A stretch of DNA of 64,000 nt from Thermoanaerobaculia bacterium (lineage in GTDB: Bacteria > Acidobacteriota > Thermoanaerobaculia > Multivoradales > UBA5704). Shown piece by piece: positions 37,746 to 55,626 of the stretch (positions are counted from its first letter, which is position 1; each line of letters opens with the position of its first letter). Below the pieces are notes generated by a model. The model worked only from the letters and a program-made list of their open reading frames with translations, had not been told where the DNA came from and made no database searches. The stretch is taken from NCBI GenBank assembly GCA_035995205.1, contig DASYKS010000091.1, positions 2,085-66,084 on the forward strand. The letters are read 5' to 3'. The translations under genes and the position numbers were made by a program.

Positions 37746-37756
37746 GGCGTCTCCCC

Positions 37757-38086
37757 TCAAGCGAATTCGAGCACCGCGGCCACACCGCGCGCGAGCCGTT
37801 GCCATTTCTCTTCTTCGACCGCGAGCTGCCTCTTGCCCTTAGCGGTCAAGCGGTAGACGCGCGCCCGGCGGCCCTTCTCCGACTCGCTCCATTCCCCTTT
37901 GAGCAGGCCCGCCTGCTCCAGCCGATGGAGCGCCGGATAGAGCGAGCCCTCTTCCACCCGCAGCAGATCCCCCGACGCCGCTTGAATATGCACCGCGATC
38001 CCGAAGCCATGAAGCGGCCCGCGTTCCAAAGTGCGCAGCACCAGTAGGTCGAGAGTTCCCTGGAGCACGTTGTCGCGCTTGCTCAT
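37757..38086 (-). CDS. PadR family transcriptional regulator
   Basis: LQGTLDLLVLRTLERGPLHGFGIAVHIQAASGDLLRVEEGSLYPALHRLEQAGLL. Classic PadR directly upstream of an ADOP permease. Confidence 0.85.
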   Translation of the reverse strand: MSKRDNVLQGTLDLLVLRTLERGPLHGFGIAVHIQAASGDLLRVEEGSLYPALHRLEQAGLLKGEWSESEKGRRARVYRLTAKGKRQLAVEEEKWQRLARGVAAVLEFA

Positions 38087-38274: not shown

Positions 38275-39261
38275 ATGAGATGGACGCCTTGGTTCCTCGT
38301 TATGGTTCTGGTCTCTTCTTCTGTATTCGCGCAAGTCGAAGTCGATCAGTGGAAAAATCTCGGTCGCGGCACGACGCTCTGGCCACAGGTCGGTCCAACC
38401 TGCTCTGGCGGGACGGCGCTAGATGGAAGCCTCGAAAACGGATATCGGGCTCTTTCTACAGCCGATGCGCGATTCGTTCAGCGCCTGACTCCGCCCACCT
38501 ATCCGTCCGGTCTAACCCGTGTCTGTGCATGTTGGATCGGCCGCGATCCTATAGATATGCCATTCAACTTTTTGATTTATGATGACGATGGACAAGGGGG
38601 AATCCCAGGCAAGTTGCTCGGCTCTGTTCCCTCAGTCGTCTCAATCCCAACGATATTCGGTCAGGAGTTCGTCGGCGAGAGTTGCGCTTTTCTCGACCTG
38701 CGTACCGAGTCAGGAGGTTTATACATCGGCGTCCAGTGGGACGCGGAAGCGTACATTGGTTTCTTCACCTGCAGCGACGAGAGCCTGACTACCCCACCGG
38801 CGAAAATGTATAGATCTAGCAATGGAGGACTGAACTGGCTTCCTGTGGCTGGTACCGTTTTCCCGAAAGCCAGAGCCCTCAGTTTTCGTGGTGAATTCGT
38901 CACTCTCGTCGATCCGGCCCCCCCTGCGGGACCGTGGTTGACCACCTCCGCGCTTCCGGGCTATCAGTTCAAATCGCAGATCGCCGGAAACCGCGCGGCG
39001 ACCCTGGTCGCGGATTGCGTGCCGGAGACGCTATGCCTCGCGGGGGCGATTCCCACCCGTGCGGAAGCCTTCGTGCGGATCATCGGCCCCCGCGGAAACG
39101 GTTTCCTGTGGCCGGAAGTGATTCGCTTCACCGTGGCCCAAGTCGAGCTCTGGATTCAGAAGACGCCGGCAGGCCCGATCAACTACTACAAACTGGCTGG
39201 AGTTTCCCAGGACAGCGACGTCCTGAACGGCCTGGTCGATCGCGAAGGTTTCTTGCCTTAG
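38275..39261 (+). CDS. Secreted hypothetical protein
   Basis: Signal peptide MRWTPWFLVMVLVSSSVFA. Lower GC. No recognised family. Its last 81 bp are duplicated at 40136-40216. Confidence 0.6.
   Translation: MRWTPWFLVMVLVSSSVFAQVEVDQWKNLGRGTTLWPQVGPTCSGGTALDGSLENGYRALSTADARFVQRLTPPTYPSGLTRVCACWIGRDPIDMPFNFLIYDDDGQGGIPGKLLGSVPSVVSIPTIFGQEFVGESCAFLDLRTESGGLYIGVQWDAEAYIGFFTCSDESLTTPPAKMYRSSNGGLNWLPVAGTVFPKARALSFRGEFVTLVDPAPPAGPWLTTSALPGYQFKSQIAGNRAATLVADCVPETLCLAGAIPTRAEAFVRIIGPRGNGFLWPEVIRFTVAQVELWIQKTPAGPINYYKLAGVSQDSDVLNGLVDREGFLP
39181..39261 (+). repeat. Direct repeat copy 1 (3' end of the secreted-protein gene)
   Basis: 81 bp, ~90% identical to 40136-40216. Both copies encode NYYKL(A/P)GVSQDSDVLNGLVDREGFLP*. 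Confidence 0.8.
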
Positions 39262-39477: not shown

Positions 39478-39813
39478 TCAGTGAAGGCAGGCGTCAACCA
39501 AGTCGAGGACGTCCTGAAGAAACTCGGCCGGCGCCCGCTCGACGAAACGGGCGCGGCGGCTGAGGTGATCGACGGACTTGACCTGCTCGACCATGACAAA
39601 ACCGGTCAGCGATGAAGAGTCCGGGAGGGGGAGGTGAAAGGGAAATCCGCGGTTTGTGTTGGTGATCGGGCAGACGATCGCCAGCCCCGTGTGCTGGTTG
39701 AAGAGATCTTTGCTGACGACCAGAGCAGGTCGGCGCCCTTTCTGTTCATGACCCGTTTGGGGGTCGAAGGAGAGGGTTACGAAATCGCCTTGCCTCGGCG
39801 TGTAGCGGGGCAC
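39478..39813 (-). CDS. MazF/PemK family type II toxin (endoribonuclease)
   Basis: MPRYTPRQGDFVTLSFDPQTGHEQKGRRPALVVSKDLFNQHTGLAIVCPITN is the PemK/MazF fold signature. Confidence 0.8.
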   Translation of the reverse strand: MPRYTPRQGDFVTLSFDPQTGHEQKGRRPALVVSKDLFNQHTGLAIVCPITNTNRGFPFHLPLPDSSSLTGFVMVEQVKSVDHLSRRARFVERAPAEFLQDVLDLVDACLH

Positions 39814-40117: not shown

Positions 40118-40135
40118 CGTTGTACTGCCGCTTCC

Positions 40136-40216
40136 AACTATTACAAGCTGCCCGGAGTCTCCCAGGACAGCGACGTCCTCAACGGCCTGGTCGATCGCGA
40201 AGGTTTCTTGCCGTAA
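40136..40216 (+). repeat. Direct repeat copy 2 (orphan duplicate of the secreted-protein gene 3' end), followed by a hairpin at 40227-40256
   Basis: 81 bp, ~90% identical to 39181-39261 and ending in TAA. Downstream hairpin GGCGAGTCG-N12-CGACTCGCC. The motif gacgactcgcc also follows copy 1. Confidence 0.8.
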
Positions 40217-40407: not shown

Positions 40408-43158
40408 ATGCCCCGGCATTTATCGCGGCGTTGGATTGCATACGTGGGTCTTCTCGCTCTTCTTGGGGCATCGACCGCCGTGGCGCAGCCGCATTTGGTG
40501 ACCGATCTCAATCAGGGGCGGGTGCCGGCCAATTTGCAACCCTTGCCGTCCGCGGGGATCGAGCAGGACGGAGTGCTCTATTTTCCTGGGCAAGATCCGC
40601 AGCACGGCTACGAGCTCTGGCGGACTGACGGCACGCCGGAAGGCACGTACCGCCTGGTCGATCTCTGCCCGGGAAGCTGTTGGGGCGGGGGCAACGGTCT
40701 AGGTTTCTTCCACGGTTTTCTCTACTTTCTGGGCAACGACCGGGAGCACGGTGTCGAGATCTGGCGCACGGACGGCACGGTAGGCGGGGAGGAATTGCTC
40801 GGGGATCTCTGCCCGGGCGTTTGCGGGACGACGCCGGGCGGGTGGGTCGAGCGGGACGGCGCTCTCTGGTTTCTCACCCAAGAGTTCGGCAAGACCCCGA
40901 TCCTTTGGACCAGCGACGGCACCCCGGCGGGGACGAGGCCGGTCGCGAACCTCTGCACCGATCTCGGCATCTGCGGCTTCGTCGATTATTCATACGCGTT
41001 CTTGGCCGGCCCGGACCCCTCCGGGCAGGGCTTCGCCCTCTGGACGTCGACCGACACCTCCGCCCTGTACCGCACCGACGGCACCGCGGCGGGTACCGTC
41101 CTCCTGCATCGCTTCACGAACGCGTTTCTCGCCTCCAAGGCGGGCGCGGACAAGCGGCTCGAAAGCTTGAAAACCTCCGTCGGACCGATCGCGCGGACGG
41201 CGGCCGAGGCCGCCGAGTCGCTCTTCTTTCTCGACGGGTTCGATCTCTGGACGAGCGACGGAACGCCCGCCGGCACCCACTTCGTGCGCAACGTCGAAGG
41301 GCTGATCGGCCTCAGCCGCTACATCCAATCGGTGCGTGTGATCGACGGGATCTGGTACGCGATCTTCGACTACGGCGATTGGCTGCGTTCGGACGGGACC
41401 GCGGAGGGGACGTTCCTCCTGGCGAAGGTGGATTCCCAATTTCGTCCGACGCTCGCGCGGATCGGCAACGCGGTATTCGCGATCACCGTGCACGGCATCT
41501 GGCGCGCGGGCGCCACCCCGGAGACCACCGTGCGCTTCGACGGGCCGGTCGGCGACGTCCTGACCGTCGTCGAGCGGCCGGGGCGGCTGTACGTCATGGG
41601 CTGGGACCGGGCCGGTTTCGTCTGGAGCACCGACGGCACCCCGGCCGGCACGCGGCGCCACCATCTGGACGGCCCGCCGAATCCGGATCAGTACGAGATG
41701 GGCGGATTCGGCGACGGCGTCTTGATCTCGGTCGGTTACCGCGAGCTTTGGCGGATCGATCTGTCCGGCGCGGAGCGGCTGCATGATTTCCAGCCGGCCA
41801 ACGGCGGTTCCGGCCCGGTCGACCAGATCGTCCTCGACGATCGCCTGCTGTTCATTTCGCTCCCCGACGCGCAAAGGGCGAAACTGTTCTCCTCCGACGG
41901 CACGACGGCCGGCACGGCGGCGATCAGTCCCTATGTGGACGGGAACTTCGGTTTCGAATTCCAGCCGGATGTCTATCGGCTCACGCGGGCCGGTCACCGC
42001 GCGTTCTTCACCACGTTCGGTCGGGTCTGGACGAGCGACGGCACGGCCGCGGGAACCCGGTCCTTCCGCCCCTCGTACAGCTCTTCGACCCACGTGATGA
42101 CCGCGCCGATCGGCGTCGTGGGCGACCGCTTCGTGTTCGGCGCGAACTTCAAGCTCTACCCGTTGCGCTGCGAACCGGGGGACACCGAGCCCTGGGTGAG
42201 CGACGGCACGCAACGCGGCACGAAACAGATCCTGGACTTGAATCCGTTCTTCCGACCGACCAACAGCTCCCAGTGCGAGACCGTGGCGGTCTCGTCGTCG
42301 CCGGGTCCCGGCGTCTCGCTCGGCTCGTTCGCCCTGTTTGCCGCCAACGATCTTGTGCACGGCCGCGAGCTGTTCGCGACCGACGGCACGAAAGAGGGCA
42401 CCCGCCTGGTCGCGGATCTGAACCCGAAGTTGATGCCGAATGCGATCACCGATCCGCCCTTGCCGGCGCTGATCGGCGTCGGCTCCGATCCGAGCGACCT
42501 GGTCCGGGCTGGGAGCCGCGCCTTCTTCGTCGCCGACGACGGGACGACCGGCCACGAGCTCTGGGTGACGAACGGCACGCGCCGCGGCACCCGGCGGGTG
42601 GTAGACCTGGTGCCTGGACCGGCAAGCTCCACGCCGCGCGACCTCGTGGCGGTCGGCGACGCGGTCTACTTCTTCGCCGCGCACGGCACGGGCGAAGGGC
42701 TTTTTCGCAGCGACGGCACGCGCGCCGGTACGGTCCTCGTGAGCGACCTGGCCGGCGCTTCTCAGGCTCGCGACCTTACCGTCGCCCGCGGCAACCTGTT
42801 CTTCGTCGCGTTCCTCCCGGAATCGGGCACGGAGCTGTGGACCTCCCGGGGCACGGCTGCCACCACCCGCGAGGTGGCCGACCTGCGCCCAGGGCCGCTC
42901 GGCTCGCAGCCGCAAAATCTGAAGGCGATCGGCGATCGGGTGGTGTTTGCGGCCGAGGACGGCACCTCCGGCCTCGAACCGTGGAGCAGCGACGGCACCG
43001 CGCAAGGCACGCTCCGCTGGGGGGATCTCGCCCCGGGCTCTGCCGCGAGCAGCCCGGGACCGTTCAGCGTCGCCCGGGGGCAGATCCTGTTCGGCGCCGA
43101 CGACGGCGAGCACGGCCGCGAGCTGTGGGCGATCCCGGTCGCCGACCTGCCGAAATGA
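40408..43158 (+). CDS. Secreted ELWxxDGT-repeat protein, paralog 1 (type B N-terminus)
   Basis: 916 aa. Signal peptide ...STAVAQPHLVTDLNQ. Three Cys pairs (DLCPGSCWGGG, DLCPGVCG, NLCTDLGICGF). About 19 units with ELWxTDGTxxGT core. C-terminus GADDGEHGRELWAIPVADLPK. GGAGG RBS. Confidence 0.85.
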   Translation: MPRHLSRRWIAYVGLLALLGASTAVAQPHLVTDLNQGRVPANLQPLPSAGIEQDGVLYFPGQDPQHGYELWRTDGTPEGTYRLVDLCPGSCWGGGNGLGFFHGFLYFLGNDREHGVEIWRTDGTVGGEELLGDLCPGVCGTTPGGWVERDGALWFLTQEFGKTPILWTSDGTPAGTRPVANLCTDLGICGFVDYSYAFLAGPDPSGQGFALWTSTDTSALYRTDGTAAGTVLLHRFTNAFLASKAGADKRLESLKTSVGPIARTAAEAAESLFFLDGFDLWTSDGTPAGTHFVRNVEGLIGLSRYIQSVRVIDGIWYAIFDYGDWLRSDGTAEGTFLLAKVDSQFRPTLARIGNAVFAITVHGIWRAGATPETTVRFDGPVGDVLTVVERPGRLYVMGWDRAGFVWSTDGTPAGTRRHHLDGPPNPDQYEMGGFGDGVLISVGYRELWRIDLSGAERLHDFQPANGGSGPVDQIVLDDRLLFISLPDAQRAKLFSSDGTTAGTAAISPYVDGNFGFEFQPDVYRLTRAGHRAFFTTFGRVWTSDGTAAGTRSFRPSYSSSTHVMTAPIGVVGDRFVFGANFKLYPLRCEPGDTEPWVSDGTQRGTKQILDLNPFFRPTNSSQCETVAVSSSPGPGVSLGSFALFAANDLVHGRELFATDGTKEGTRLVADLNPKLMPNAITDPPLPALIGVGSDPSDLVRAGSRAFFVADDGTTGHELWVTNGTRRGTRRVVDLVPGPASSTPRDLVAVGDAVYFFAAHGTGEGLFRSDGTRAGTVLVSDLAGASQARDLTVARGNLFFVAFLPESGTELWTSRGTAATTREVADLRPGPLGSQPQNLKAIGDRVVFAAEDGTSGLEPWSSDGTAQGTLRWGDLAPGSAASSPGPFSVARGQILFGADDGEHGRELWAIPVADLPK

Positions 43159-43183
43159 GATCGAGAACCCAACGGAGGGCGTG

Positions 43184-44608
43184 ATGCGAATTCAATCCTG
43201 GCGCGCGGCTTGGAGCTTCGTCTTTCTCGCTTTCGCGGGAACTTTGGCCGTCGAGGCCCAGCCGCACCTGGTCGCCGATCTCAATCAGGAAAGGGTGAAT
43301 ACCGCCTTGTCCTCCGCTTTGTCTGGAGGAGTCGAGCACGACGGCGTGGTCTATTTTGCGGGTCACGATCCGCAGCACGGCTCCGAGCTCTGGCGGACGG
43401 ACGGTACCTCGGAGGGCACCTATCGCCTGACCGATCTCTGTCCGGGGAGCAGCGGGGGCTTGGGCGAGCCCCTGGGGTTTTTTGCCGGGTACCTCTATTT
43501 CCGCGGCGACGACTGCGAGCACGGATTCGAGATCTGGCGCACGGACGGGACGGTGGGCGGAGAGGAAATGCTCGCGGAGCTCTGCACGGGAGACTGCGTG
43601 ATCGAACCCAGGAGCTGGCTCGAATGGCGAGGGGCGCTCTGGTTCCTGCTTCGGGATGCCGCCGGAACGGCGCAGGTTCTGTGGACCAGTGACGGAACCG
43701 CGGAGAACACGAGGCCTGCCGCCGACCTCTGCGCCGATCTCGGAATCTGCGACTTTGTCCCGGACTCCATTTTCCTGGTCGGGCCGAACGCGACGGGGGA
43801 GGGTCTGTTCCTCTGGGTCTATTCGACGGACAACCCCATGGGCGCGCTTTTCCGTACCGACGGCACCGCTTCCTCATCTCCCGGCCCCGGTGTCGTGGTC
43901 GGCCGGATCGCCCTGTTCCCCGCCAACGATCTGATTCATGGCCGCGAGCTGTTCGCGACCGACGGCACGAAAGAAGGCACCCGCCTCGTCGCCGACCTCA
44001 ACCGGAACCTCGAACCCAATCCGAAGTTTTATCCTCACCATCCGGAGTTCGGACCGGAGCAGGCCGGCGTCGGTTCGGATCCGAGCGATCTGGTGCGCGC
44101 GGGAAGCAATGTCTTCTTCGTTGCCGACGACGGCAGGACCGGGCGCGAGCTGTGGGTGACGAACGGCACGCGCCGGGGCACGGGTCTCGTGAGCGACCTC
44201 TCGGGCGGCTCCCAAGCGCGGGAGCTGACCCTCGTCCGCGGCAAACTGTTCTTCGCGGCGTTCCTCCGGGAGACGGGCGCCGAGCTGTGGACCTCGAAAG
44301 GCACGGCGGAGACCACCCATAGGGTGGCCGACCTGCACCCCGGACCGTTCGGCTCGCAGCCGCAGAACCTCAAGGCGGTGGGCGATCGGGTGGTGTTCGC
44401 GGCCGAGGACGGCATCTCCGGGCTCGAACCCTGGACCAGCGACGGCACCGCGGAGGGCACGCTCCGCTGGGGCGACATCGCGCCGGGCAGCGCGTCGAGC
44501 AACCCGGGGCCGTTCAGCCTGGCGAACGGCCAGATCCTGTTCGGCGCGGACGACGGCGAGCACGGGCGCGAGCTGTGGGCGATGCCGGTCGCCGAGCTGC
44601 CGCAATAG
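43184..44608 (+). CDS. Secreted ELWxxDGT-repeat protein, paralog 2 (type A, shortened by two in-frame internal deletions)
   Basis: 474 aa. Same N- and C-termini as paralog 4, but it jumps from ...ALFRTDGTA directly to SSSPGPGVVVGRIALF, and from TRRGT to GLVSDLSGGSQ. Confidence 0.75.
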   Translation: MRIQSWRAAWSFVFLAFAGTLAVEAQPHLVADLNQERVNTALSSALSGGVEHDGVVYFAGHDPQHGSELWRTDGTSEGTYRLTDLCPGSSGGLGEPLGFFAGYLYFRGDDCEHGFEIWRTDGTVGGEEMLAELCTGDCVIEPRSWLEWRGALWFLLRDAAGTAQVLWTSDGTAENTRPAADLCADLGICDFVPDSIFLVGPNATGEGLFLWVYSTDNPMGALFRTDGTASSSPGPGVVVGRIALFPANDLIHGRELFATDGTKEGTRLVADLNRNLEPNPKFYPHHPEFGPEQAGVGSDPSDLVRAGSNVFFVADDGRTGRELWVTNGTRRGTGLVSDLSGGSQARELTLVRGKLFFAAFLRETGAELWTSKGTAETTHRVADLHPGPFGSQPQNLKAVGDRVVFAAEDGISGLEPWTSDGTAEGTLRWGDIAPGSASSNPGPFSLANGQILFGADDGEHGRELWAMPVAELPQ

Positions 44609-44639
44609 AAGCCCTACCGAGAAGACGAACGGAGACGCG

Positions 44640-47387
44640 ATGAGAATCCTGCAATCCTGGCGCGCGGTGTGGTCCGTCGTCCTTCTCGCCTTCGCGGGCG
44701 CCTTGTCCGGGCTGGCCCAGCCCCGCCTCGTCCTCGATCTCAACCGAGAGAGGGGGCGATCCGTTTCGCAGCCTCGGCTGGGCTTCGAGCAGGACGGCGT
44801 CGTCTATTTTTCGGGCAACGACCCGCAGCACGGCTACGAGCTGTGGCGGACCGACGGCACGGTGGGCGGCACCTATCGTCTGACCGATCTCTGCCCGGGA
44901 CGCTGCGACGGCGGAGGACAGGCCCTCGGCTTTTTCCAGGGGTCGCTCTATTTCCTGGGCAACGATTCCGAGCACGGCACCGAGATCTGGCGTACGGACG
45001 GAACCGTCGGCGGGGAGGAGCTGCTCGCCGACGTCTGTCCGGGAATCTGTGATCTCCAGGTGAACGGCTGGGTCGAATGGCACGGGCGGTTTTGGTTCCT
45101 CGCCCAAAGAGTCTTCGGCACAGTCCTCGTCCTCTGGTCGAGCGACGGGACGCAAGAAGGAACCCGACCGGTGGCGAGTCTCTGTCGCGACCTTTCGATC
45201 TGCGAGGGCCAGGACCGCTACACGTATTTGACCGGCTCCGACCCGTCCGGACAGGGCCTCGTCCTGCGGGTGTGCGACGGCTGCGACGCGAGCTCGCTTT
45301 ATCGCACCGACGGCACCGTGGGCGGCACCGTGCTCCTGCATCGCTATGCGGCAAGAGGGTCCGACTTTGGGGAGAAGGCCACCGTTCCGCTCTATTTTCT
45401 CGACGGCTCGGACCTCTGGACCAGCGACGGAACGCCCTCCGGCACTCGCTTCGTCCGCAACCTGGACGCCCTGGTGGATTACGTCCCGTTGCGCTCTTCC
45501 GCCCAGGTGATCGACGGCACCCTGTACCTCGCGTTCGACGGCGGCGAATGGCTGCGCTCCGACGGCACGGCGGAAGGCACCGTCGTGCTGGCCGATGTCG
45601 GCCCCGGCACCGACCCGAAAATCGAGCCGATCGGCGACGCCGTCTTCGCCGTCACGTCGGAAGGAGTCTGGCGCACGGGAGGCACCCCGGAGACCACCGC
45701 CCGGCTCGATTTTCCGTTCGGCTTGATCCAGACCGTGGTCGCGCGGCCGGGCCGCCTGTTCGGCTTGAGCTACGAGGGGCAAGGGGCCTTCGTCTGGACC
45801 ACCGACGGCACGGCGGCCGGCACGCGACGGGTCCATCTTCCCCGCGGACCCAAACCGGATTTGTACGGTTTGGTGGGGTTTCTCGACGGGGTGTTGTTCT
45901 CCCGCGGCGCGCGCGAGCTGTGGCAACTGGAACCGATCGCCTCCGGCCAGGGCGGCACGGGATTCGTCGCCGAGCGGCTGCACGAGTTCCAGCCCGAAAA
46001 CGGCGGCTCCGGCCCGAGCGATCAGATCGTCTTCTCCGGCCGGCTGCTGTTCGCGTCGCTGGCCAACCCGGAAAGCCGGTGGCTGTACTCCTCCGACGGT
46101 ACCGCCGCCGGCACGACCGCGCTCCGCGCGATCGAGAACAGCCCGTATCTCGCCCCCGGCGGCGCCTACGAACCGGGGACCCCCTTGATCGCCCGCGCCG
46201 GCGCGCGGGTGTTTTTCAACACCGCGGGAGCGCTCTGGTCGAGCGACGGAACCCGCAAAGGCACCAAGGCCTGGCGCGGTTCTTCCTTCCCGAGCTTCCG
46301 GATGAACGCGCCGATCGGTTTCCTCGGCGGCCAGCTCGTTTTCTCCGCGACGGTCGACTTGGACCTCTACCCGCAGCGCTGCCCCCCCGGAGAGGCCGAG
46401 CCGTGGGTGAGCGACGGCGTTCGAAGGATGGAACGGCTGGTGAATCTCAATCCCTTCTACTACGAACCCGACGGGTTCTGCCTGAACACGGCGTATTCTT
46501 CGTCGCCCGGGCGAGGAGCCCGGATCGGCCCGATCGCGCTCTTCGCCGCGGACGATCTGGTGCACGGGCGCGAGCTGTTCGCGACCGACGGCACGAAGGA
46601 CGGAACCCGGCTGGTCGCCGACATCGACCCGCGGGTGACGCCGGTCGACGGTTCGGAGCTCTTGCCGCGCCCCCTCCACTTCTTCGGGATCGGCTCGGAC
46701 CCGAGCGACCCGGTGCGGGCGGGGAGCCTCGCCTTCTTCGCCGCGGACGACGGGACGACCGGCCGCGAGCTTTGGGTGAGCGACGGTACGAGCCGCGGCA
46801 CCCGTCAGGTGGCGGACCTGATGCCCGGCGCCGGCAGCTCTTCCCCGCGCGACCTCGTGGCGACCGGCGACGCGGTCTACTTCTTCGCCGCCAACCCCCC
46901 CGGGAGCGCCGGCACCGCGGGCGAGGGGCTCTACCGGAGCGACGGCACCCGGAGAGGCACGGTCCGGGTCGGCGACCTCGCGGGCGTTTCCGAAGCGCGG
47001 GGGCTCCAGGTCGCCGACGGCAAGCTTTTCTTCGTCGCCTACCGCCGGGAGACGGGCACCGAGCTGTGGGTCTCGGAAGGCACGGCGGAGACCACCCACG
47101 AGGTGACCGACCTGCGCCCCGGCCCGCGCGGCTCGGCCCCTCAGAACCTGAAAACGGTGGGCGGAACGGTGATTTTCGCCGCGGACGACGGCGTCTCCGG
47201 GCTCGAACCGTGGAGTAGCGACGGCACCGCGGCGGGCACGCTCCGATGGGGCGATATCGCGCCAGGGCGCGACGCGAGCGTCCCCGGTCCGTTCAGCGTC
47301 CTCGGCGGCCAGCTTCTCTTCGGTGCCGACGACGGCGAGCATGGGCGCGAGCTGTGGGCAATTTCGCTTGCTGAGCTGTCGCAATAG
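44640..47387 (+). CDS. Secreted ELWxxDGT-repeat protein, paralog 3 (type B)
   Basis: 915 aa. Signal peptide, Cys-pair region, repeat units. C-terminus GADDGEHGRELWAISLAELSQ. Confidence 0.85.
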   Translation: MRILQSWRAVWSVVLLAFAGALSGLAQPRLVLDLNRERGRSVSQPRLGFEQDGVVYFSGNDPQHGYELWRTDGTVGGTYRLTDLCPGRCDGGGQALGFFQGSLYFLGNDSEHGTEIWRTDGTVGGEELLADVCPGICDLQVNGWVEWHGRFWFLAQRVFGTVLVLWSSDGTQEGTRPVASLCRDLSICEGQDRYTYLTGSDPSGQGLVLRVCDGCDASSLYRTDGTVGGTVLLHRYAARGSDFGEKATVPLYFLDGSDLWTSDGTPSGTRFVRNLDALVDYVPLRSSAQVIDGTLYLAFDGGEWLRSDGTAEGTVVLADVGPGTDPKIEPIGDAVFAVTSEGVWRTGGTPETTARLDFPFGLIQTVVARPGRLFGLSYEGQGAFVWTTDGTAAGTRRVHLPRGPKPDLYGLVGFLDGVLFSRGARELWQLEPIASGQGGTGFVAERLHEFQPENGGSGPSDQIVFSGRLLFASLANPESRWLYSSDGTAAGTTALRAIENSPYLAPGGAYEPGTPLIARAGARVFFNTAGALWSSDGTRKGTKAWRGSSFPSFRMNAPIGFLGGQLVFSATVDLDLYPQRCPPGEAEPWVSDGVRRMERLVNLNPFYYEPDGFCLNTAYSSSPGRGARIGPIALFAADDLVHGRELFATDGTKDGTRLVADIDPRVTPVDGSELLPRPLHFFGIGSDPSDPVRAGSLAFFAADDGTTGRELWVSDGTSRGTRQVADLMPGAGSSSPRDLVATGDAVYFFAANPPGSAGTAGEGLYRSDGTRRGTVRVGDLAGVSEARGLQVADGKLFFVAYRRETGTELWVSEGTAETTHEVTDLRPGPRGSAPQNLKTVGGTVIFAADDGVSGLEPWSSDGTAAGTLRWGDIAPGRDASVPGPFSVLGGQLLFGADDGEHGRELWAISLAELSQ

Positions 47388-47412
47388 AGCCAGGAACGAG
47401 GAGGAGGACGTG

Positions 47413-50130
47413 ATGCGAATTCAATCCCGGCGCGCGGTGTGGATCGTCGTCCTTCTCGGTTTCGCGGGGGCCTTGGCACTCTCGGCCCAGCCGCACCTGG
47501 TCGCCGATCTCCATTGGGAACGGGTGCCGGCCGACTTGCAGCCTCGCCTGTCGGGGGGTGTCGAGCACGAAGGCGTGCTTTATTTTTCGGGTCACGACCC
47601 GCAGCACGGCGCCGAGCTTTGGCGGACCGACGGCACTCCGGAGGGTACCTACGCCCTGGCCGATCTCTGTCCGGGAAGCTGCGGCGGCTTGGTCGAGCCC
47701 TTGGGGTTTTTTGCCGGGCACCTCTATTTTCGCGGCGACGACCGCGAGCACGGAATCGAGATCTGGCGCACGGATGGGACGGTGGGCGGCGAGGAGCTGC
47801 TCGCCGATCTCTGCCCGGGGGCCTGCGGGACCGAACCGAGGAACTGGCTCGAATGGCGAGGGGCGCTCTGGTTCGTGATCGGCCAGGCTCTCTGGACGAG
47901 CGACGGAACCGCCGAGAACACGAAGCCGGCCGCCGACCTCTGCGGCGATCTTAAGATCTGCGGCGTTTCGCCGGAGTCCATCGTCCTGCCCGGACCGAAC
48001 GCGACGGACGAGGGCCTGTTTTTGTTGCTCTATTCGACGGACAACCCTCACGGCGCGCTCTTCCGCACCGACGGCACCGTCGCGGGCACCGTCCTTCTGC
48101 ATCGCTTCGCGAACCCGATTCTGACGGCGGCGGAGGCTTCCGGCCGATATTACTTCGTGGACGGATCGGCGCTCTGGACGAGCGACGGAACGCCTGCCGG
48201 CACGCGGTTCGTTCGAAACTTGAGTGAGCTGGTGCCCGGATTTGTCTTCGGCGTCCTGTCCAGGGTTGTCGATGGGATCTTCTACATGCTTTACGACATG
48301 GGCGACTGGTTGCGCTCGGATGGGACGGCGGCGGGCACGATCAAATTGGCGCGGTTGGATTTCTCGTACCCCGGTCGGTTCCTCATCGCGCAAATCGGCG
48401 GCGTCGTCTTCGCGGTCACCGAAGACGGGATCTGGCGCACGGAGGGCACACCCGAGACCACCGTCCGGTTCGATGCTCCCCGCAGCCAGTTCGGTCTCGT
48501 CGTCGAACGGCCGAACCGTCTCTTCGTCCAGGCCTACGACGGCAATGACTTCATCTGGAGCACCGACGGCAGCGCCAACGGCTACCGGCGGCTCCACCTG
48601 AACGGTCCTCCGGTCCCGGATCCGGAGATGGCCGGGTTCGGGGAGGGGGTGCTGATCTCGCGCGGCTATCGCGACCTGTGGCGGGTTGACGGCGCGGGGG
48701 CGGGCGCCGAGCCGGTGCACGACTTTCAGCCGGCAAACGAGGGGTCGGGACCGAGCGCGCAGGTGGTGCACGAAGACCGGCTGCTGTTCTTTTCGCTCGT
48801 CGGCCACGAGCGGTCGCAGCTCTTTTCCTCCGACGGCACCGCGGCCGGCACAGCCGCGATCGGTCCGCCGGGCTACGAATCGCCTTTCGATACCGAGAGT
48901 CCCTTCTTTCGGCCGCAGTTCCACCGGCTGACTCGCGTAGGGAGCGAAGCCTTCTTCAATGCCTTCTACGCGTCCCGGTTCTGGGCGACCGATGGAACCC
49001 GCGAGGGAACCCGGACCGTCAAGCCTGGAGCTTCGTCCTATGTGAGCTTCGGCATGACCGCGCCGATCGGCCTCGTCGGCGGTGGCTTTGTGTTCGGCGC
49101 GAACCTACGGTTCAATCCCCATGCTTGCGATTACGGGGACGCCGAGCCTTGGATTCGCGACGGCCGCGGCACGAGACAACTGGTGAATCTCAATCCTTTC
49201 AAGTACGAGAGCAGCCAGCCGCAGTGCGACAAATTGGACGCTTCCTCCTCTCCCGGCCCCGGCGTAGGGGTCGGCCGAATCGCCCTGTTCCCGGCCGACG
49301 ATCTCGTGCATGGCCGCGAGCTGTTCGCGACCGACGGCACGAAATCCGGCACCCATCTGGTCGCCGACATCAACCGGAACCTCGAACCCAATCCGGAGTT
49401 CTTTCCTCCCCATCCGGAGTACGGACCGGAGCTGGCCGGCGTCGGTTCCGACCCGACCGATCTGGTGCGCGCGGGAAGCAACGTCTTCTTCGTCGCCGAC
49501 GACGGCAGGACCGGGCGCGAGCTGTGGGTGACGAACGGCACGCGCCGGGGCACCCGGCGGCTCACGGATCTGGTGCGCGGACGGGCAAGCTCCTCGCCGC
49601 ATGACCTGGTGGCGGTCGGCGACGCTCTCTACTTCTTCGCGCCCAACCCCGGGGGCGCCGCGAGGGATGGCCTGTACAAGAGCGACGGCACGGAGGCCGG
49701 CACGATCCTGGTGAGCGACCTTTCGGGCGGCTCCCAGGCGCGGGATCTGACCCTCGTCCGAGGGAAGCTGTTCTTCGCCGCGTTCCTGCCGGAGACGGGC
49801 ACCGAGTTGTGGACTTCCGAAGGCACGGCGGCGACCACCCGCAGCGTGACCGACCTACGCCCCGGGCCGCGCGGCTCGCAGCCTCAGAACCTCAAGGCGG
49901 TGGGTGCGCGGGTGGTGTTCGCGGCCGAGGACGGCACCTCGGGTCTCGAACCCTGGAGCAGCGACGGCACCAGGGAGGGCACGGTCCGGCTGGGCGACAT
50001 CGCTCCCGGCGTCGCCGCGAGCAGCCCGGGGCCGTTCAGCGTCGCGAACGGCCAGATTCTGTTCGGCGCCGACGACGGCGAGCATGGGCGCGAGCTGTGG
50101 GCGGTGCCGGTCGCCGAGGTGGACCCTTGA
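47413..50130 (+). CDS. Secreted ELWxxDGT-repeat protein, paralog 4 (type A)
   Basis: 905 aa from MRIQSRRAVWIVVLLGFAGALALSAQPHLVADLHWERV. The type-A N-terminus has GHDPQHGAELWRTDGTPEGTYALADLCPGSCGGLVEPLGFFAGHLYFRGDD. The track ORF has a 30-codon upstream extension. Confidence 0.85.
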   Translation: MRIQSRRAVWIVVLLGFAGALALSAQPHLVADLHWERVPADLQPRLSGGVEHEGVLYFSGHDPQHGAELWRTDGTPEGTYALADLCPGSCGGLVEPLGFFAGHLYFRGDDREHGIEIWRTDGTVGGEELLADLCPGACGTEPRNWLEWRGALWFVIGQALWTSDGTAENTKPAADLCGDLKICGVSPESIVLPGPNATDEGLFLLLYSTDNPHGALFRTDGTVAGTVLLHRFANPILTAAEASGRYYFVDGSALWTSDGTPAGTRFVRNLSELVPGFVFGVLSRVVDGIFYMLYDMGDWLRSDGTAAGTIKLARLDFSYPGRFLIAQIGGVVFAVTEDGIWRTEGTPETTVRFDAPRSQFGLVVERPNRLFVQAYDGNDFIWSTDGSANGYRRLHLNGPPVPDPEMAGFGEGVLISRGYRDLWRVDGAGAGAEPVHDFQPANEGSGPSAQVVHEDRLLFFSLVGHERSQLFSSDGTAAGTAAIGPPGYESPFDTESPFFRPQFHRLTRVGSEAFFNAFYASRFWATDGTREGTRTVKPGASSYVSFGMTAPIGLVGGGFVFGANLRFNPHACDYGDAEPWIRDGRGTRQLVNLNPFKYESSQPQCDKLDASSSPGPGVGVGRIALFPADDLVHGRELFATDGTKSGTHLVADINRNLEPNPEFFPPHPEYGPELAGVGSDPTDLVRAGSNVFFVADDGRTGRELWVTNGTRRGTRRLTDLVRGRASSSPHDLVAVGDALYFFAPNPGGAARDGLYKSDGTEAGTILVSDLSGGSQARDLTLVRGKLFFAAFLPETGTELWTSEGTAATTRSVTDLRPGPRGSQPQNLKAVGARVVFAAEDGTSGLEPWSSDGTREGTVRLGDIAPGVAASSPGPFSVANGQILFGADDGEHGRELWAVPVAEVDP

Positions 50131-50157
50131 AACCCGGTACATAGGTAGGAGGACGCG

Positions 50158-52884
50158 ATGCGGAACTTTCGGTCCTGGCGCTTTTTGTGGGTCGTCGTCC
50201 TTCTCGTCTTCGCGGGAGCTTTGGCCGGGCGGGCTCAACCCCACCGGATCACCGATTTCAATCGAGGACGGACGCGATCGTTTTCGACGCCCTTCCCGGA
50301 GGCGGGCACCGAGCGCGATGGCGTTTTGTACTTTCCGGCTCGCGATCTGCAGCATGGCTACGAGCTGTGGCGAACCGACGGCACGCCCGCGGGCACCGGC
50401 CGTCTGACCGATCTCTGCCCGGGCCTCTGCGACGGCACGAGCGGGACTCTCGGCATTTTCCAGGGTTGGCTCTATTTCCTGGGCAACGATTCCGAGCACG
50501 GCACCGAGATCTGGCGCACGGACGGCACCGCCGACGGAGAGGAGCGGGTCACCGACGTCTGTCCGGGATCCTGCAGCCCCCTGCTGGACGGCTGGACCGT
50601 GTGGCGCGGGCAGATCTGGTTCCTGGCCCAGAAGACCTATGACGCGATCCCCGTCCTCTGGACGAGCGACGGAACCCGGGCGGGAACCCGGCCGGTGGCG
50701 AGCCTGTGCCGCAAACTTTCGATCTGCGACTTCGGCCCCTACACCTCCGCCTTCCTGGCCGGGCCGGACCCGTCCGGACAGGGCCTCGTCGTTGGGGTCT
50801 TCGAGAGCTACGATGCGAAGAGCCTCTATCGGACCGATGGCACCGCGGGCGGCACCGTGCTCCTGCACCGCTTCGCGGACCAAGGGTCGGGCTACGGGGA
50901 GGCCGCCACCGTGCCGCTCTATTTTCTCGACGGCTCGGATCTCTGGACGAGCGACGGGACCCCCTCCGGCACGCATCTCGTCCGCAACTTGAGCGGTCTC
51001 GTGGATTTCGTCCCTTTGCGGTCTTCGACCCGGGTGATCGACGGCATCCTGTACATCGCGTTCGACGGCGGCGAATGGCTGCGCTCGGACGGCACGGCGG
51101 AGGGCACCGTCGTGCTGGCCAACGTCGGCATAGGCTCGAACCCGACGGTCGAGCGGATCGGCGGCTCGGTCTTCGCCGTCGCGGAGGAAGGAATCTGGCG
51201 CACGGGCGGAAGCCCGGAAACCACCTCCCAGATCGCCTGGCCGTTCGGGTTGATCGAGACCGCGGTCGAGAGCGCGGGCCGGCTGTTCGGGCTGAGCTAC
51301 GGGCCAGGAGGCTCGGGCGCCGCCGTCTGGACCACCGACGGCACGCTGGCCGGCACACGGAAGATCCATTTCGACGGCGGACCCCAACCCGATTCGTACG
51401 TCCTCGCGGCCTTCGGCAACGGCGCCTTGATCTCCCGCGGAGCGCGCGAGCTCTGGCGGATCGACGGCACGAGCCCGGGCGGAGAGCGGCTGCACGCATT
51501 CGAGCCCGAAAACGGCGGCTCCGGCCCGACCGACCAGATCGTCGTGGGCGGGCGGCTGCTGTTCCTGGCGCTGGCCAGCCCGACGAGCCGCAAGCTCTTC
51601 TCGTCCGACGGCACAGCAGCCGGCACGACCGAGATTCTCGCGACCGCGCGGAACCCTTATGCCGAGCAGGGCGCCACCTACGATCCGGCGTACAGCTCGC
51701 TCACGCGCGCGGGAACGCGCGCGTTCTTCAATGCCCGGGGGCGGGTCTGGTCGAGCGACGGGACCCGCGAGGGAACCAGGATCTGGCAGCCCAACCCCTC
51801 GTATGCGGGGTTCGGGATGGCCGCTCCGATCGGTTTGTTCGGGGATCAGTTCGTCTTCTCGGGGATCCGCGACCTCGACTCGAACCCGCATCGCTGCCCT
51901 TCCGGCGAGAGCGAGCCGTGGGTGAGCGACGGGGCTCACGTCATGAAACGGCTGCTGAATCTCAATCCCTTCCACTATGAGTCCTACGGGATCTGCGAGA
52001 ACGTCGGCCTTTCCTCGGCGCCCGGGCGCGGCGTCCCGCTCGGCCGGATCGCGCTCTTCGCCGCGGACGACCACGTCCATGGGCGCGAGCTGTTCGCGAC
52101 CGACGGCACCGCGGCAGGCACCCGGCTCGTCGCCGACATCAACCGCAAGCAGAGACCGATCGACGATCCGGAGCTCATACCGCGCCCGCCGAGACTCATC
52201 GGCCTCGGCTCGGACCCCGAGAATCTGGTGCGCGCGGGAAGCCGCATCTTCTTCACCGCGGACGACGGCGACCTTGGGCGCGAGTTGTGGGTGACGGACG
52301 GCACGTACCGCGGCACCCGGCAGGTCGTGGACTTGACGCCCGGCCCCGGCAGCTCCTCGCTGCACGACCTGGTCGAGGTCGACGGCGCGGTCTACTTCTT
52401 CGCGTCCTTCGGCAGCGGCGAAGGCCTCTATCGGAGCGATGGAACGCGCAGCGGCACGGTCCTCGTGAGCGATCTTTCGGGCGCTTCCCAACCGGCGGGG
52501 CTCGCGCTCGCTTCCGACCGGCTGTTCTTCACGGCGGCCCGCCCGGAGACGGGCACCGAGCTTTGGATCTCTCACGGTACGCCGGAAACCACCCACCTCG
52601 TGACGGATCTGCGCCCCGGCCTGCGCGGCTCCTCGCCGCAGAATCTCAAAGCGGTGGCGGACAAGCTGGTCTTCGCGGCGGACGACGGGACCTCGGGGCT
52701 CGAACCCTGGATCAGCGACGGCACCGCGGAGGGAACGGTCCGCTGGGGCGACCTCGCGCCGGGGCGCGACGCGAGCACGCCGGGGCCGTTCAGCGTCGCG
52801 AACGGCCAGATCCTCTTCGGCGCCGACGACGGCGAGCACGGGCGGGAGCTGTGGGCGATGCCGGTCGGCGAGCTGCTGAAATAG
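50158..52884 (+). CDS. Secreted ELWxxDGT-repeat protein, paralog 5 (type B)
   Basis: 908 aa. C-terminus GADDGEHGRELWAMPVGELLK. Confidence 0.85.
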   Translation: MRNFRSWRFLWVVVLLVFAGALAGRAQPHRITDFNRGRTRSFSTPFPEAGTERDGVLYFPARDLQHGYELWRTDGTPAGTGRLTDLCPGLCDGTSGTLGIFQGWLYFLGNDSEHGTEIWRTDGTADGEERVTDVCPGSCSPLLDGWTVWRGQIWFLAQKTYDAIPVLWTSDGTRAGTRPVASLCRKLSICDFGPYTSAFLAGPDPSGQGLVVGVFESYDAKSLYRTDGTAGGTVLLHRFADQGSGYGEAATVPLYFLDGSDLWTSDGTPSGTHLVRNLSGLVDFVPLRSSTRVIDGILYIAFDGGEWLRSDGTAEGTVVLANVGIGSNPTVERIGGSVFAVAEEGIWRTGGSPETTSQIAWPFGLIETAVESAGRLFGLSYGPGGSGAAVWTTDGTLAGTRKIHFDGGPQPDSYVLAAFGNGALISRGARELWRIDGTSPGGERLHAFEPENGGSGPTDQIVVGGRLLFLALASPTSRKLFSSDGTAAGTTEILATARNPYAEQGATYDPAYSSLTRAGTRAFFNARGRVWSSDGTREGTRIWQPNPSYAGFGMAAPIGLFGDQFVFSGIRDLDSNPHRCPSGESEPWVSDGAHVMKRLLNLNPFHYESYGICENVGLSSAPGRGVPLGRIALFAADDHVHGRELFATDGTAAGTRLVADINRKQRPIDDPELIPRPPRLIGLGSDPENLVRAGSRIFFTADDGDLGRELWVTDGTYRGTRQVVDLTPGPGSSSLHDLVEVDGAVYFFASFGSGEGLYRSDGTRSGTVLVSDLSGASQPAGLALASDRLFFTAARPETGTELWISHGTPETTHLVTDLRPGLRGSSPQNLKAVADKLVFAADDGTSGLEPWISDGTAEGTVRWGDLAPGRDASTPGPFSVANGQILFGADDGEHGRELWAMPVGELLK

Positions 52885-52908
52885 GAACGAAGGGGAACGG
52901 AGGAACCG

Positions 52909-55626
52909 ATGCGATTCCAGCAATTCTGTCGTGTGAACGGGGCAGTGGCCCTGTTCATTTTCGCCGGGGCCTGGGCTGGAGAGGCCCAGCCGCACCTGGT
53001 CGTCGACCTCAATCAGCAGAGGGTGCCGGCCTTGCTCCCTTCCCAACTGTCGCGAGGTGTCGAGCATGGCGGCGTGCTCTACTTCTCCGGGCAAGATCCG
53101 CAGCACGGCCGCGAGCTCTGGCGGACGGACGGCACCGCCGAGGGCACCTATCCCCTGGTCGATCTCTGTCCGGGCAGCTGCGGGGGCTTGGGCGAGCCGT
53201 TGGGTTTCTTTGACGGACACCTCTATTTTCGCGGCGACGATCGCGAGCATGGTGTCGAGATCTGGCGCACGGACGGGACGGTGGGTGGGGAGGAGCTCCT
53301 CGCGGATCTCTGTCCAGGGGCCTGCCCGACCGAACCGGCCGACTGGCTCGAATGGCGTGGAGCGATCTGGTTCCTGACCAAGGATCAACCCGGTTCGACC
53401 TACCTCCTCTGGCGCAGCGACGGCACCGCGGAGAGCACGAGGCCGGTCGTCAACCTCTGCACCGATCTTTCGATCTGCGGTCTGAGCCCGCTTGACTACC
53501 CCTTTTCCCGGCTCAGGCCCGACCCGTCAGGCGAGGGTTTTCTTCTGCAAGGCTCATCGCCCGATAGCGCTTTCACCTCTCTCTTCCGCACCGACGGCAC
53601 CGCCGCGGGCACCGTCCTCCTGCATCGCTTCGCGCACGAAGTTCAGACGGCCGCCGAGCCTTTCGGGCCGCTCTATTTTCTCGACGGGCTCGATCTGTGG
53701 ACGAACGACGGGACTCCCGCCGGCACCCGGTTGGTGCGCAGCTTGGACGGGCTGGCGGAAGGCGTCGCTCTCTCGGTCAGGGTCGTCGACGGGATCTTCT
53801 ATGCGATCTTCAGCAGCGGCGACTGGCTGCGGTCGGACGGGACGGCCGAGGGCACGATCCAGCTTGCGCGATTGGATCTCTCCTTCTCCTACCCGCGGAT
53901 TGCGCGCATCGGCGGCACCGTCTTCGCGGTGACCGGGACCGGGGTCTGGCGCACGGGCGGAACGCCCGAGACCACCCTCCGGTTCGAGGGGCCGCGAGGC
54001 GAAGTCGAGAGCGTGATCGAACAGCCGGGCCGGCTGTTCGTCATGGCCCGCGACGGAAGGTATTTCGTTTGGACCTTCGACGGCACCGGCGGAGTCCGGC
54101 GAATCCACCTGGCCGGCCCGCCGCCCCCCGATGGGGAGATCGCCGGGTTCCGGGATGGTGTATTGATCTCCCGCGGCATCCGCGAGCTGTGGCGGATCGA
54201 CGGGGCGGGGGCGCGCGGCGAGCGGGTGCATGACTTCCAGCCCGAAAACGGCGGGTCCGGTCCGGTCGACCAGCTCGTCTTGGGAGGCCGGCTGCTGTTC
54301 ATGTCGCTCGACGGGAGGAGTCCCAAGCTCTTCTCGTCCGACGGCACCGCGTCCGGCACGACCGCGCTCAGCGCCGAACCGCTCTACGACTTCGGCTTCG
54401 AATACTTGGCGGACTTCTATTCGCTCACTCGCGCGGGGAAGCGCGCTTTCTTCTGGTCCGCGAGCACCCTCTGGACGACCGACGGTTCCCGCGCGGGAAC
54501 CGGTCCGATCTACCCGAGCCTTGGCCGCCCGGGCCTCTACAGGACGGCACCGATCGGGTTCGTCGGCGGCCGGTTCCTATTCGGCGGCAGTCGCTCGGGG
54601 TCCTATCCTTGCGACCCGGGTGACGCCGAGCCGTGGGTCAGCGACGGAACGCCGGACGGCACGAAGCGGGTGATCGATCTCAATCCCTTCTTCCGGTTCG
54701 GCCGCACCTCGCTGTGCGAAATCGTGAAGGTCTCGTCGTCGCCGGGCCAAGGCGCCGTGCTCGGCCGGATCGCTCTGTTCGCTGCCGACGACCTCCTGCA
54801 CGGGCGCGAGCTGTTCGCGACCGACGGCACGAAAGCCGGCACCCGCCTGCTCGCCGACCTCAATCCGAGCCGCCAATCCAACCCCGAGTTCTATACGGAT
54901 TTCCCGGAATTCGGACCTGAGCAGGTCGGCGTCGGCTCGGACCCGAGCGATCTGGTGCGCGTGGGGGGCACCGTCTTCTTCGTCGCCGACGACGGCAGGA
55001 CCGGGCGCGAGCTGTGGGTCACGAACGGCACGCGCCGGGGCACCCGGCTCGTGGTCGATCTGGTGCCCGGACCGTCAAGGGCAAGCTCCTCGCCGCATGA
55101 TCTTGTGGTGGTCGGCGACGGCATCTACTTCTTCGCGTCGAACCCTGGGGGCGCCGCGGGCGAGGGGTTGTACAAGAGCGACGGCACTTCGGCCGGCACG
55201 GTTCGGGTGAGCGACCTGGCCGGCGCGACCCAAGCCCGGGACCTCACCGTCGCCGCCGGCAGGCTGTTCTTCGTGGCGTTCCGCCCGGAATCGGGCACGG
55301 AGCTGTGGACCTCTCGGGGCACGGCAGAGACCACGCGCGAAGTGACCGACCTGCGCCCAGGGCCGCGCGGTTCGCTGCCGGAGTATCTCAAGGCGACGGC
55401 CGGTCGGGTGGTGTTCGCCGCGGACGACGGCGTCTCCGGTCTCGAACCGTGGAGCAGCGACGGCACCGCGGCCGGCACGGTCCGGCTGGTCGACGTCGCG
55501 CCCGGCCTCGCGGCGAGCACGCCCGGGCCGTTCAGCATCGCGAACGGCCAGGTTCTGTTCGGCGCCGACGACGGCGAGCACGGGCGGGAGCTGTGGGCGA
55601 TCCCGATGGCGGAGCTACCGCAATGA
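52909..55626 (+). CDS. Secreted ELWxxDGT-repeat protein, paralog 6 (type A)
   Basis: 905 aa. N-terminus matches paralogs 2 and 4. Confidence 0.85.
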   Translation: MRFQQFCRVNGAVALFIFAGAWAGEAQPHLVVDLNQQRVPALLPSQLSRGVEHGGVLYFSGQDPQHGRELWRTDGTAEGTYPLVDLCPGSCGGLGEPLGFFDGHLYFRGDDREHGVEIWRTDGTVGGEELLADLCPGACPTEPADWLEWRGAIWFLTKDQPGSTYLLWRSDGTAESTRPVVNLCTDLSICGLSPLDYPFSRLRPDPSGEGFLLQGSSPDSAFTSLFRTDGTAAGTVLLHRFAHEVQTAAEPFGPLYFLDGLDLWTNDGTPAGTRLVRSLDGLAEGVALSVRVVDGIFYAIFSSGDWLRSDGTAEGTIQLARLDLSFSYPRIARIGGTVFAVTGTGVWRTGGTPETTLRFEGPRGEVESVIEQPGRLFVMARDGRYFVWTFDGTGGVRRIHLAGPPPPDGEIAGFRDGVLISRGIRELWRIDGAGARGERVHDFQPENGGSGPVDQLVLGGRLLFMSLDGRSPKLFSSDGTASGTTALSAEPLYDFGFEYLADFYSLTRAGKRAFFWSASTLWTTDGSRAGTGPIYPSLGRPGLYRTAPIGFVGGRFLFGGSRSGSYPCDPGDAEPWVSDGTPDGTKRVIDLNPFFRFGRTSLCEIVKVSSSPGQGAVLGRIALFAADDLLHGRELFATDGTKAGTRLLADLNPSRQSNPEFYTDFPEFGPEQVGVGSDPSDLVRVGGTVFFVADDGRTGRELWVTNGTRRGTRLVVDLVPGPSRASSSPHDLVVVGDGIYFFASNPGGAAGEGLYKSDGTSAGTVRVSDLAGATQARDLTVAAGRLFFVAFRPESGTELWTSRGTAETTREVTDLRPGPRGSLPEYLKATAGRVVFAADDGVSGLEPWSSDGTAAGTVRLVDVAPGLAASTPGPFSIANGQVLFGADDGEHGRELWAIPMAELPQ

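Follow-up and report, generated by a model that had tools for sequence, protein, structure and literature searches.

A stretch of 64,000 nucleotides from a Thermoanaerobaculia bacterium, referred to here as the window, contains a tandem array of ten paralogous genes (P1 to P10), all on the plus strand, that begins at position 40408 and continues past the window end. Copy number at this locus varies between genomes, and the genes belong to an already known, uncharacterised family of secreted propeller proteins, whose export and fold are predicted. Three of the genes, P2, P4 and P6, share a distinct N-terminal region, called A-type in this work, and alternate with three of the remaining, or "B", genes at the beginning of the array. 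This order is probably the footprint of a birth-and-death history, in a rapidly changing gene family, in which an old block duplication, reshuffling and gene conversion each had a part. The contig comes from a metagenome assembly (JGI 3300035667; NCBI locus tags VGS22_225xx), and the G+C content of the window is 64-72%.

The array and its predicted products

Array genes are separated by 24-37 bp, and most of the gaps contain a GGAGG-like ribosome-binding motif. An ATG start and a signal-peptide-like N-terminus are present in all ten copies (Table 1). We infer that the array is probably transcribed as one operon. No promoter consensus was found, a result that is uninformative for Acidobacteriota. 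A terminator scan gave 28 hits, all within coding sequence, and was discarded as evidence for transcription units; several of the terminator-like hits coincide with recurring coding motifs, e.g. the DNA for EHDGVLYF, and are artefacts. Assembly collapse of the array is unlikely because the copies share only about 70% DNA identity.

Table 1. Genes of the array, A-type core patches and the conserved upstream neighbour, with positions in the window (aa, amino acids; OG, orthogroup; dS, synonymous divergence; ORF, open reading frame)
Feature	Position	Strand	Description
P1	40408..43158	+	TIGR04534 445.9 bits, 11 stretches; orthologues 83-87% identical
P2	43184..44608	+	A-type; 475 codons, two in-frame internal deletions (alignment and N-terminal tree)
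P3	44640..47387	+	915 aa; B; OG3
P4	47413..50130	+	905 aa; A-type; OG4; orthologue P0006 (Y4) 87% identical
P5	50158..52884	+	908 aa; B; OG5; Y5 95-96% identical, dS 0.05
P6	52909..55626	+	905 aa; mosaic, A-type and OG1-like; protein used for the structure model
P7	55653..58337	+	894 aa; B; sister of P8; dS P7-P8 0.57
P8	58363..61137	+	924 aa; B; OG8
P9	61162..63425	+	OG1-like copy with deletion and frameshift; two ORFs of 149 and 611 aa
P10	63463..64000 and past the window end	+	start of a 903-aa paralog (full length in L001); outgroup-like
A-type core patch of P6	53167..53241	+	CPGSCGGLGEPLGFFDGHLYFRGDD; diagnostic columns 92, 94, 96 and 108
Core patch equivalent in P2	43439-43513	+	A-type
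Core patch equivalent in P4	47668-47742	+	A-type
Gene for 328-aa secreted protein	38275..39261	+	conserved neighbour on the upstream side; 73% identity to the gene that precedes the single-copy locus L007

Two of the ten copies are damaged. The deletions in P2 remove approximately 430 and 55 residues and join DGT-type repeat motifs, bringing FRTDGTA to SSSPGPG and NGTRRGTG to LVSDL, and the P2 orthologue X2 (L2g3) is full length. P9 has lost approximately 170 residues and has a frameshift near 61470-61600, as seen in three-frame translation and in the gene calls of locus L001; it groups with OG1 at 100% in the tree and is probably a pseudogene. P10 groups in trees with a paralog from a second locus of the same genome. 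This second-locus paralog (protein P0028, NCBI tag VGS22_01645), located on another contig, is full-length and 52% identical to P6.

P1 and P6 are members of the ELWxxDGT repeat protein family (TIGR04534, NCBIfam). With 447.1 bits for P6 and a similar score for P1, both are far above the curated NCBIfam cutoff of 65 bits, and each contains 11 stretches of the repeat, which is about 47 residues long. Several of these proteins have already been named "ELWxxDGT repeat protein" by JGI and NCBI, and the family, with more than 6,000 strong matches, is found in Acidobacteriota, Planctomycetota and Myxococcota. A profile scan with an alignment found the family to be widespread and yielded one further informative locus (L013); a contig scan using the P4 N-terminus alone gave no match. 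Searches of Pfam-A with P1 and P6 returned no family, including Ldl_recept_b or any Pfam propeller family, a profile search of the PDB by sequence had no matches, and literature searches for ELWxxDGT and TIGR04534 found no paper in the library searched.

Each array protein begins with a basic segment, a hydrophobic segment and AxA, and the proteins are thus predicted to carry a Sec signal peptide and to be exported. The DNA from 40408 to 64000 has a strong autocorrelation peak at 144 nt (48 codons) that corresponds to the repeat of blades within the genes. P6 was modelled with AlphaFold2 from an 80-sequence alignment. The model has a predicted local distance difference test score of 89.3 and a predicted template modelling score of 0.87; it is all-beta, with approximately 18 groups of 3-4 strands. 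Foldseek matched this model to LRP4, LRP2, LRP6, tricorn, PorZ, BT4663 and DDB1 in the PDB with probability 1.0, and the template modelling (TM) scores were low (0.16-0.26 overall), so that the blade and propeller architecture is common to these proteins and the overall domain arrangement is not. The P6 model has the features of a propeller fold, i.e. all-beta composition, four-stranded blades and likeness to solved propellers. Each array protein is accordingly modelled as approximately 900 residues made up almost entirely of ELWxxDGT blades, with about 18 four-stranded blades predicted to form two or three beta-propellers.

The best structural matches are the tandem YWTD (LDL-receptor class B) propellers of LRP4, LRP5/6 and LRP2 (Foldseek E 1e-18 to 1e-12, probability 1.0). 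Both groups of proteins have several propellers in a row and a short aromatic-x-x-D motif per blade, and the array proteins are extracellular by prediction. However, the identity is 8-12%, the TM-scores for these matches are 0.16-0.19, EGF spacers are lacking in the array proteins and their origin is bacterial. The likeness, as judged from the model, is one of fold and not of family membership. Distant relatives are fused to Calx-beta, HYR, cadherin-like, SLH or RTX domains. Array members have the repeats of the family and, unlike these distant relatives, no accessory domains; they are also arranged as ten tandem genes. From the predicted fold and from the adhesin-type domains fused to relatives, the best guess is that the array encodes a varied repertoire of extracellular propellers that bind ligands or mediate adhesion.

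The A-type N-terminus and its phylogeny

An earlier reading of this DNA, made from the sequence alone, described a distinct N-terminal region in P2, P4 and P6, and alignment confirms it. The signature SGGVEH / CPGS(C/S)GGL(G/V)EPLGFFxGxLYFRGDD / xEPxxWLEWRGA is shared by these three proteins and is missing from P1, P3, P5, P7, P8 and P10. In a comparison of all 84 triples of nine paralogs (P9 was left out), P2, P4 and P6 have 9 private N-terminal columns, compared with 4 for the triple that ranks second. The A motif is confined to six genes among the 120 top database matches: P2, P4 and P6, plus three orthologues. Residues specific to A are grouped in loops (residues ~92-108 and 142-147) that adjoin CxxxC motifs. 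The cysteine pattern itself, which had been offered as a mark of type, does not separate the two groups, as CPGxC is found in both and the second cysteine is lost only in P2. The proposed B consensus likewise describes no type of its own; it equals the plain consensus of the subfamily.

The first six paralogs do alternate B-A-B-A-B-A, and similarity is greater between genes two apart than between neighbours. The permutation P value is 0.003 for the N-termini of P1-P6 and 0.019 for their full lengths, the "first six" being a post hoc choice. For the N-termini of nine genes P is 0.005, and for full-length sequences of the whole array it is 0.07-0.08.

Trees were built by neighbour-joining from p-distances with Kimura correction and bootstrap, and included orthologues from five related genomes. 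In what follows, relative X is represented by loci L004, L005 and L002, relative Y by L006 and L009, and relative V by L011 and L013. Every window paralog falls in its own orthogroup with 100% bootstrap, and P2 pairs with L2g3 at 99% in the N-terminal tree. A-type genes with their orthologues form a clade at 98% for residues 28-232, and the support is still 98% for this segment after removal of the core patch (residues 88-125). For residues 240-440 the A clade is found at 90%, and A together with OG1, the orthogroup of P1, at 96%. Further along, the A clade has 0% for residues 440-640, where the orthogroup of P6 falls with the P1 group instead (94%), and about 0% for the C-terminus (645-916); it stays at 0-1% from residue 440 onward. 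A clade of all B genes has 0-24% in any segment. P1 groups with the A genes and not with P3 and P5; P3, P5, P7 and P8 make up a second group, and P10 is outgroup-like. The sequence-only reading had expected the A and B N-termini to form two clades, and this holds for A, which is a clade, and fails for B, which is a paraphyletic remainder and not a type.

The A-type N-terminus is one sub-lineage, comprising the P2/P4 and P6 orthogroups, that is older than the species split and covers approximately the first 440 residues. P6 is a mosaic, A-type in residues ~28-440 and ~634-781 and OG1-like in residues 440-640, and the same mosaic is seen in synonymous differences. The A core patch is exchangeable by gene conversion. 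In the P6 orthologues of relatives X and V (X6 and V6), it has been replaced by a P3-type (OG3) tract; codons 81-130 of X6 are 91-93% identical in nucleotides to P3 and 69-81% to P6, and V6 has the same patch. Recent gene conversion was also considered as the source of the 81-91% identity between P4 and P6 at residues 50-170, and was rejected. The proportion of synonymous differences there is 0.42, as elsewhere, and the proportion of nonsynonymous differences is low (0.10), which indicates that purifying selection accounts for the identity.

A separate observation concerns P5 and its orthologue Y5 (L006 8475-11174). Their dS of 0.05 compares with approximately 0.2 for neighbouring array orthologues and 0.51 for the DHO_dh flank, which suggests a recent exchange of one cassette between lineages.

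Duplication ages and the origin of the gene order

At the syntenic site, relatives have one gene (L007), two (L003), five (L005 and L002), at least six (L006 and L009) and at least six (L011 and L013), compared to ten in the window. The gene of L007 is non-A (OG1-like), and the two genes of L003 are OG1-OG6. Relative X has its five genes in the order 1-5-3-2-6, i.e. three B genes and then two A genes that are adjacent. The order in relative Y, 8-3-5-3-4-(P1/P9-like), assumes that L006 and L009, which come from one metagenome, join at a split OG3 gene. Relative V has 1-8-3 ... 5-6-7. The adjacencies 3-4 and 5-6-7 recur in relatives and the whole alternation does not; the alternation is not conserved among relatives.

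Each paralog has its own orthologue in other genomes, with 71-96% identity. For array orthologues in relatives X and Y, dS is 0.18-0.31 (0.24 for P2-X2). Between paralogs, compared on the same 458 codons, dS is 0.30 for P2-P4 (bootstrap 95% interval 0.24-0.37; up to 0.32 in another estimate), 0.47 for P3-P5 (0.38-0.58), 0.49 for P4-P6 (0.40-0.59) and 0.63 for P5-P7. It reaches 0.77 for P1-P3 and P1-P5 and is 0.69-0.79 for adjacent pairs, with P7-P8 (0.57) as the sole exception. From these dS values and the separate orthologue of each paralog, all of the duplications predate the species splits. The duplications are old and do not represent a recent local burst.

Comparison of the array with itself by blastn gave a diagonal of 72.9% identity over 11.7 kb at a shift of 5522 bp and 69.6% at 2779 bp; the three-gene and four-gene shifts gave 70.0% and 70.3%. 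Autocorrelation has peaks at 5496-5499 bp, and as exact-offset autocorrelation is blurred by indels, self-blastn and the gene-order permutation test were used in its place. A periodicity of about 5.5 kb, predicted by the sequence-only reading, is therefore present as a weak signal at the two-gene shift and is not repeated at four genes.

A birth-and-death array is the probable explanation of these data. Blocks of one and two genes would have been duplicated, copies would have been lost, shortened by internal deletion or turned into pseudogenes, and conversion would have occurred between those that remained. One duplication of a two-gene B-A block would have produced P3-P4 and P5-P6, and an extra copy of the P4 lineage, P2, would later have been placed beside the unrelated first gene P1. 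The similar dS of P3-P5 and P4-P6 fits one B-A block duplication, and a single block duplication plus the later P2 is the most likely source of the B-A-B-A-B-A order. Duplication of a two-gene unit, as suggested earlier, is thus retained for the P3-P4/P5-P6 block, and P1-P2 is not a third copy of it.

Several points weigh against this explanation. Deletions alone could not turn the window order into 1-5-3-2-6 or 8-3-5-3-4; this makes the history reticulate, and the single B-A duplication is only one of several possible reconstructions. The placement of P6 with P1 rather than P4 in residues 440-640 (94%) needs an extra recombination event. Values of dS of approximately 0.5-0.8 in a genome of 68% GC are close to saturation, and the trees are not maximum likelihood. 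The lesions of P2 and P9 could in principle be assembly errors in a metagenome contig.

A doubtful alternative shifts the phase of the duplicated unit: a two-gene A-B unit would have been duplicated in two rounds to give [P2-P3], [P4-P5] and [P6-P7], with P1 and P8-P10 outside. The topologies for A, ((P2,P4),P6), and for B, ((P3,P5),(P7,P8)), are congruent under this scheme, the junctions that precede P3 and P5 resemble each other in sequence, and the order 5-6-7 is kept in relative V. However, genes that should have been duplicated together differ in dS: P2-P4 is below P3-P5 (bootstrap P = 0.001) and P4-P6 is below P5-P7 (P = 0.03). Paired genes would thus differ in age, unless conversion homogenised the A copies.

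It is unlikely that the alternation is a coincidence of shuffled gene order with no block duplication. Three A genes fall at i, i+2 and i+4 in 6 of the 120 arrangements possible in ten slots, the permutation test on full-length sequences of the whole array is as weak as given above, and gene order differs in every relative examined. Coincidence alone would not lead one to expect the equal dS of P3-P5 and P4-P6, a two-gene-shift diagonal that is unbroken over 11.7 kb, or the conservation of the B3-A4 and B5-A6 adjacencies in other genomes.

The sequence-only reading had also proposed that the two types act as a heteromeric pair. An obligate A+B pair, with the interleaving kept by selection, would be consistent with A genes always occurring in arrays that also hold B genes, with the recurrence of B3-A4 and B5-A6 in relatives Y and V, and with the clustering of A-specific residues in loops by the CxxxC motifs. 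The two types do not occur in balance, however. L007 holds one non-A gene alone, relative X has the order B-B-B-A-A, and the window has three A and seven non-A genes, with one of the three A genes (P2) truncated. Moreover, in X and V a stretch of B sequence has taken the place of the A core patch in the orthologue of P6, and such a pairing seems very improbable.

Triplication of a B-A unit (P1-P2, P3-P4, P5-P6) followed by further B duplications, the origin put forward by the sequence-only reading, is hardly credible. In its favour are the strict alternation in P1-P6, the greater similarity of genes two apart, the 5.5-kb diagonal, and the two-gene B-A locus (OG1-OG6) of L003. Against it, the B tree ((P3,P5),P1) is incongruent with the A tree ((P2,P4),P6) for these units, the dS of 0.77 found for both P1-P3 and P1-P5 contrasts with 0.30 for P2-P4, P1 sides with the A genes, and other genomes contain a distinct orthologue of each of the six genes.

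Comparison with known families and the chromosomal site

Families of bacterial surface or secreted proteins that evolve by birth and death, with exchange of segments by gene conversion, include Anaplasma msp2/p44, Treponema tpr and Helicobacter hop. Like these families, the array varies in copy number, from 1 to 10 at one locus, and contains a truncated member, a probable pseudogene and mosaics. A conversion tract of approximately 40-50 codons and relaxed constraint are further likenesses; array orthologues have a ratio of nonsynonymous to synonymous divergence (dN/dS) of 0.2-0.5, compared with 0.05-0.12 in the flanking DHO_dh and aldehyde dehydrogenase genes. Unlike in cassette families, every array copy has its own predicted start codon, ribosome-binding site and signal peptide, which argues against a single expression site fed by silent cassettes. 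Of the features that define cassette variation, segmental conversion is present (X6 and the mosaic segment trees), and one expressed copy with silent cassettes is absent. The exchanges in the array are ancient, unlike rapid switching.

A stronger interpretation would make the locus a diversity-generating hotspot for secreted multi-propeller binding proteins, in which block duplication, cassette exchange and patch conversion remodel binding surfaces and the interleaving of A and B is kept by pair cooperation or array stability. We consider this quite unlikely. The alternation is a modest evolutionary footprint and not a new mechanism. Because copy number at a single syntenic site ranges naturally from 1 to 10, the duplications are dated, and mosaics and a clear conversion tract are present, the locus is a usable system for studying how a repertoire of secreted propellers expands.

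The chromosomal site of the array is conserved in relatives. It is bordered on one side by a gene of the DHO_dh (dihydroorotate dehydrogenase) family and on the other by a gene pair for enoyl-CoA hydratase (ECH) and aldehyde dehydrogenase (ALDH). Upstream of the array, in addition to the DHO_dh-family gene, are genes for a MacB-like permease and its accompanying PadR regulator, for the 328-aa secreted protein and for a MazF toxin. Downstream of P10, a unique 450-aa ORF is followed by the ECH and ALDH genes. This ORF (L001 17954-19306) lies between P10 and the ECH gene, outside the window; it has no homologue in loci L001-L012 or L013 and no Pfam domain.

Synonymous divergence between this genome and relative X changes along the locus. 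It is 0.45-0.47 for the upstream flank (33368-34405) and P1, and 0.18-0.31 for the array interior and the downstream ECH and ALDH genes (L001 19449-21732, compared with L004 and L002). The ECH proteins of this genome and of relative V match at 100% identity. This pattern points to recombination between lineages somewhere inside the array.

The upstream flank varies too. The MacB-like duplicated permease and PadR regulator (35064-38086, minus strand) occupy the interval from DHO_dh to the array in this genome and in relative V (L011); relatives X, Y and W lack them there. The 3' end of the gene for the 328-aa protein is present twice, as a direct repeat of 81 nt (39180-39260 and 40135-40215, 91% identical). 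Between the two copies lies a 955-bp segment that bears the gene for the MazF-type toxin on the minus strand (39478-39813) and looks like a toxin-antitoxin cassette that was inserted with target duplication.

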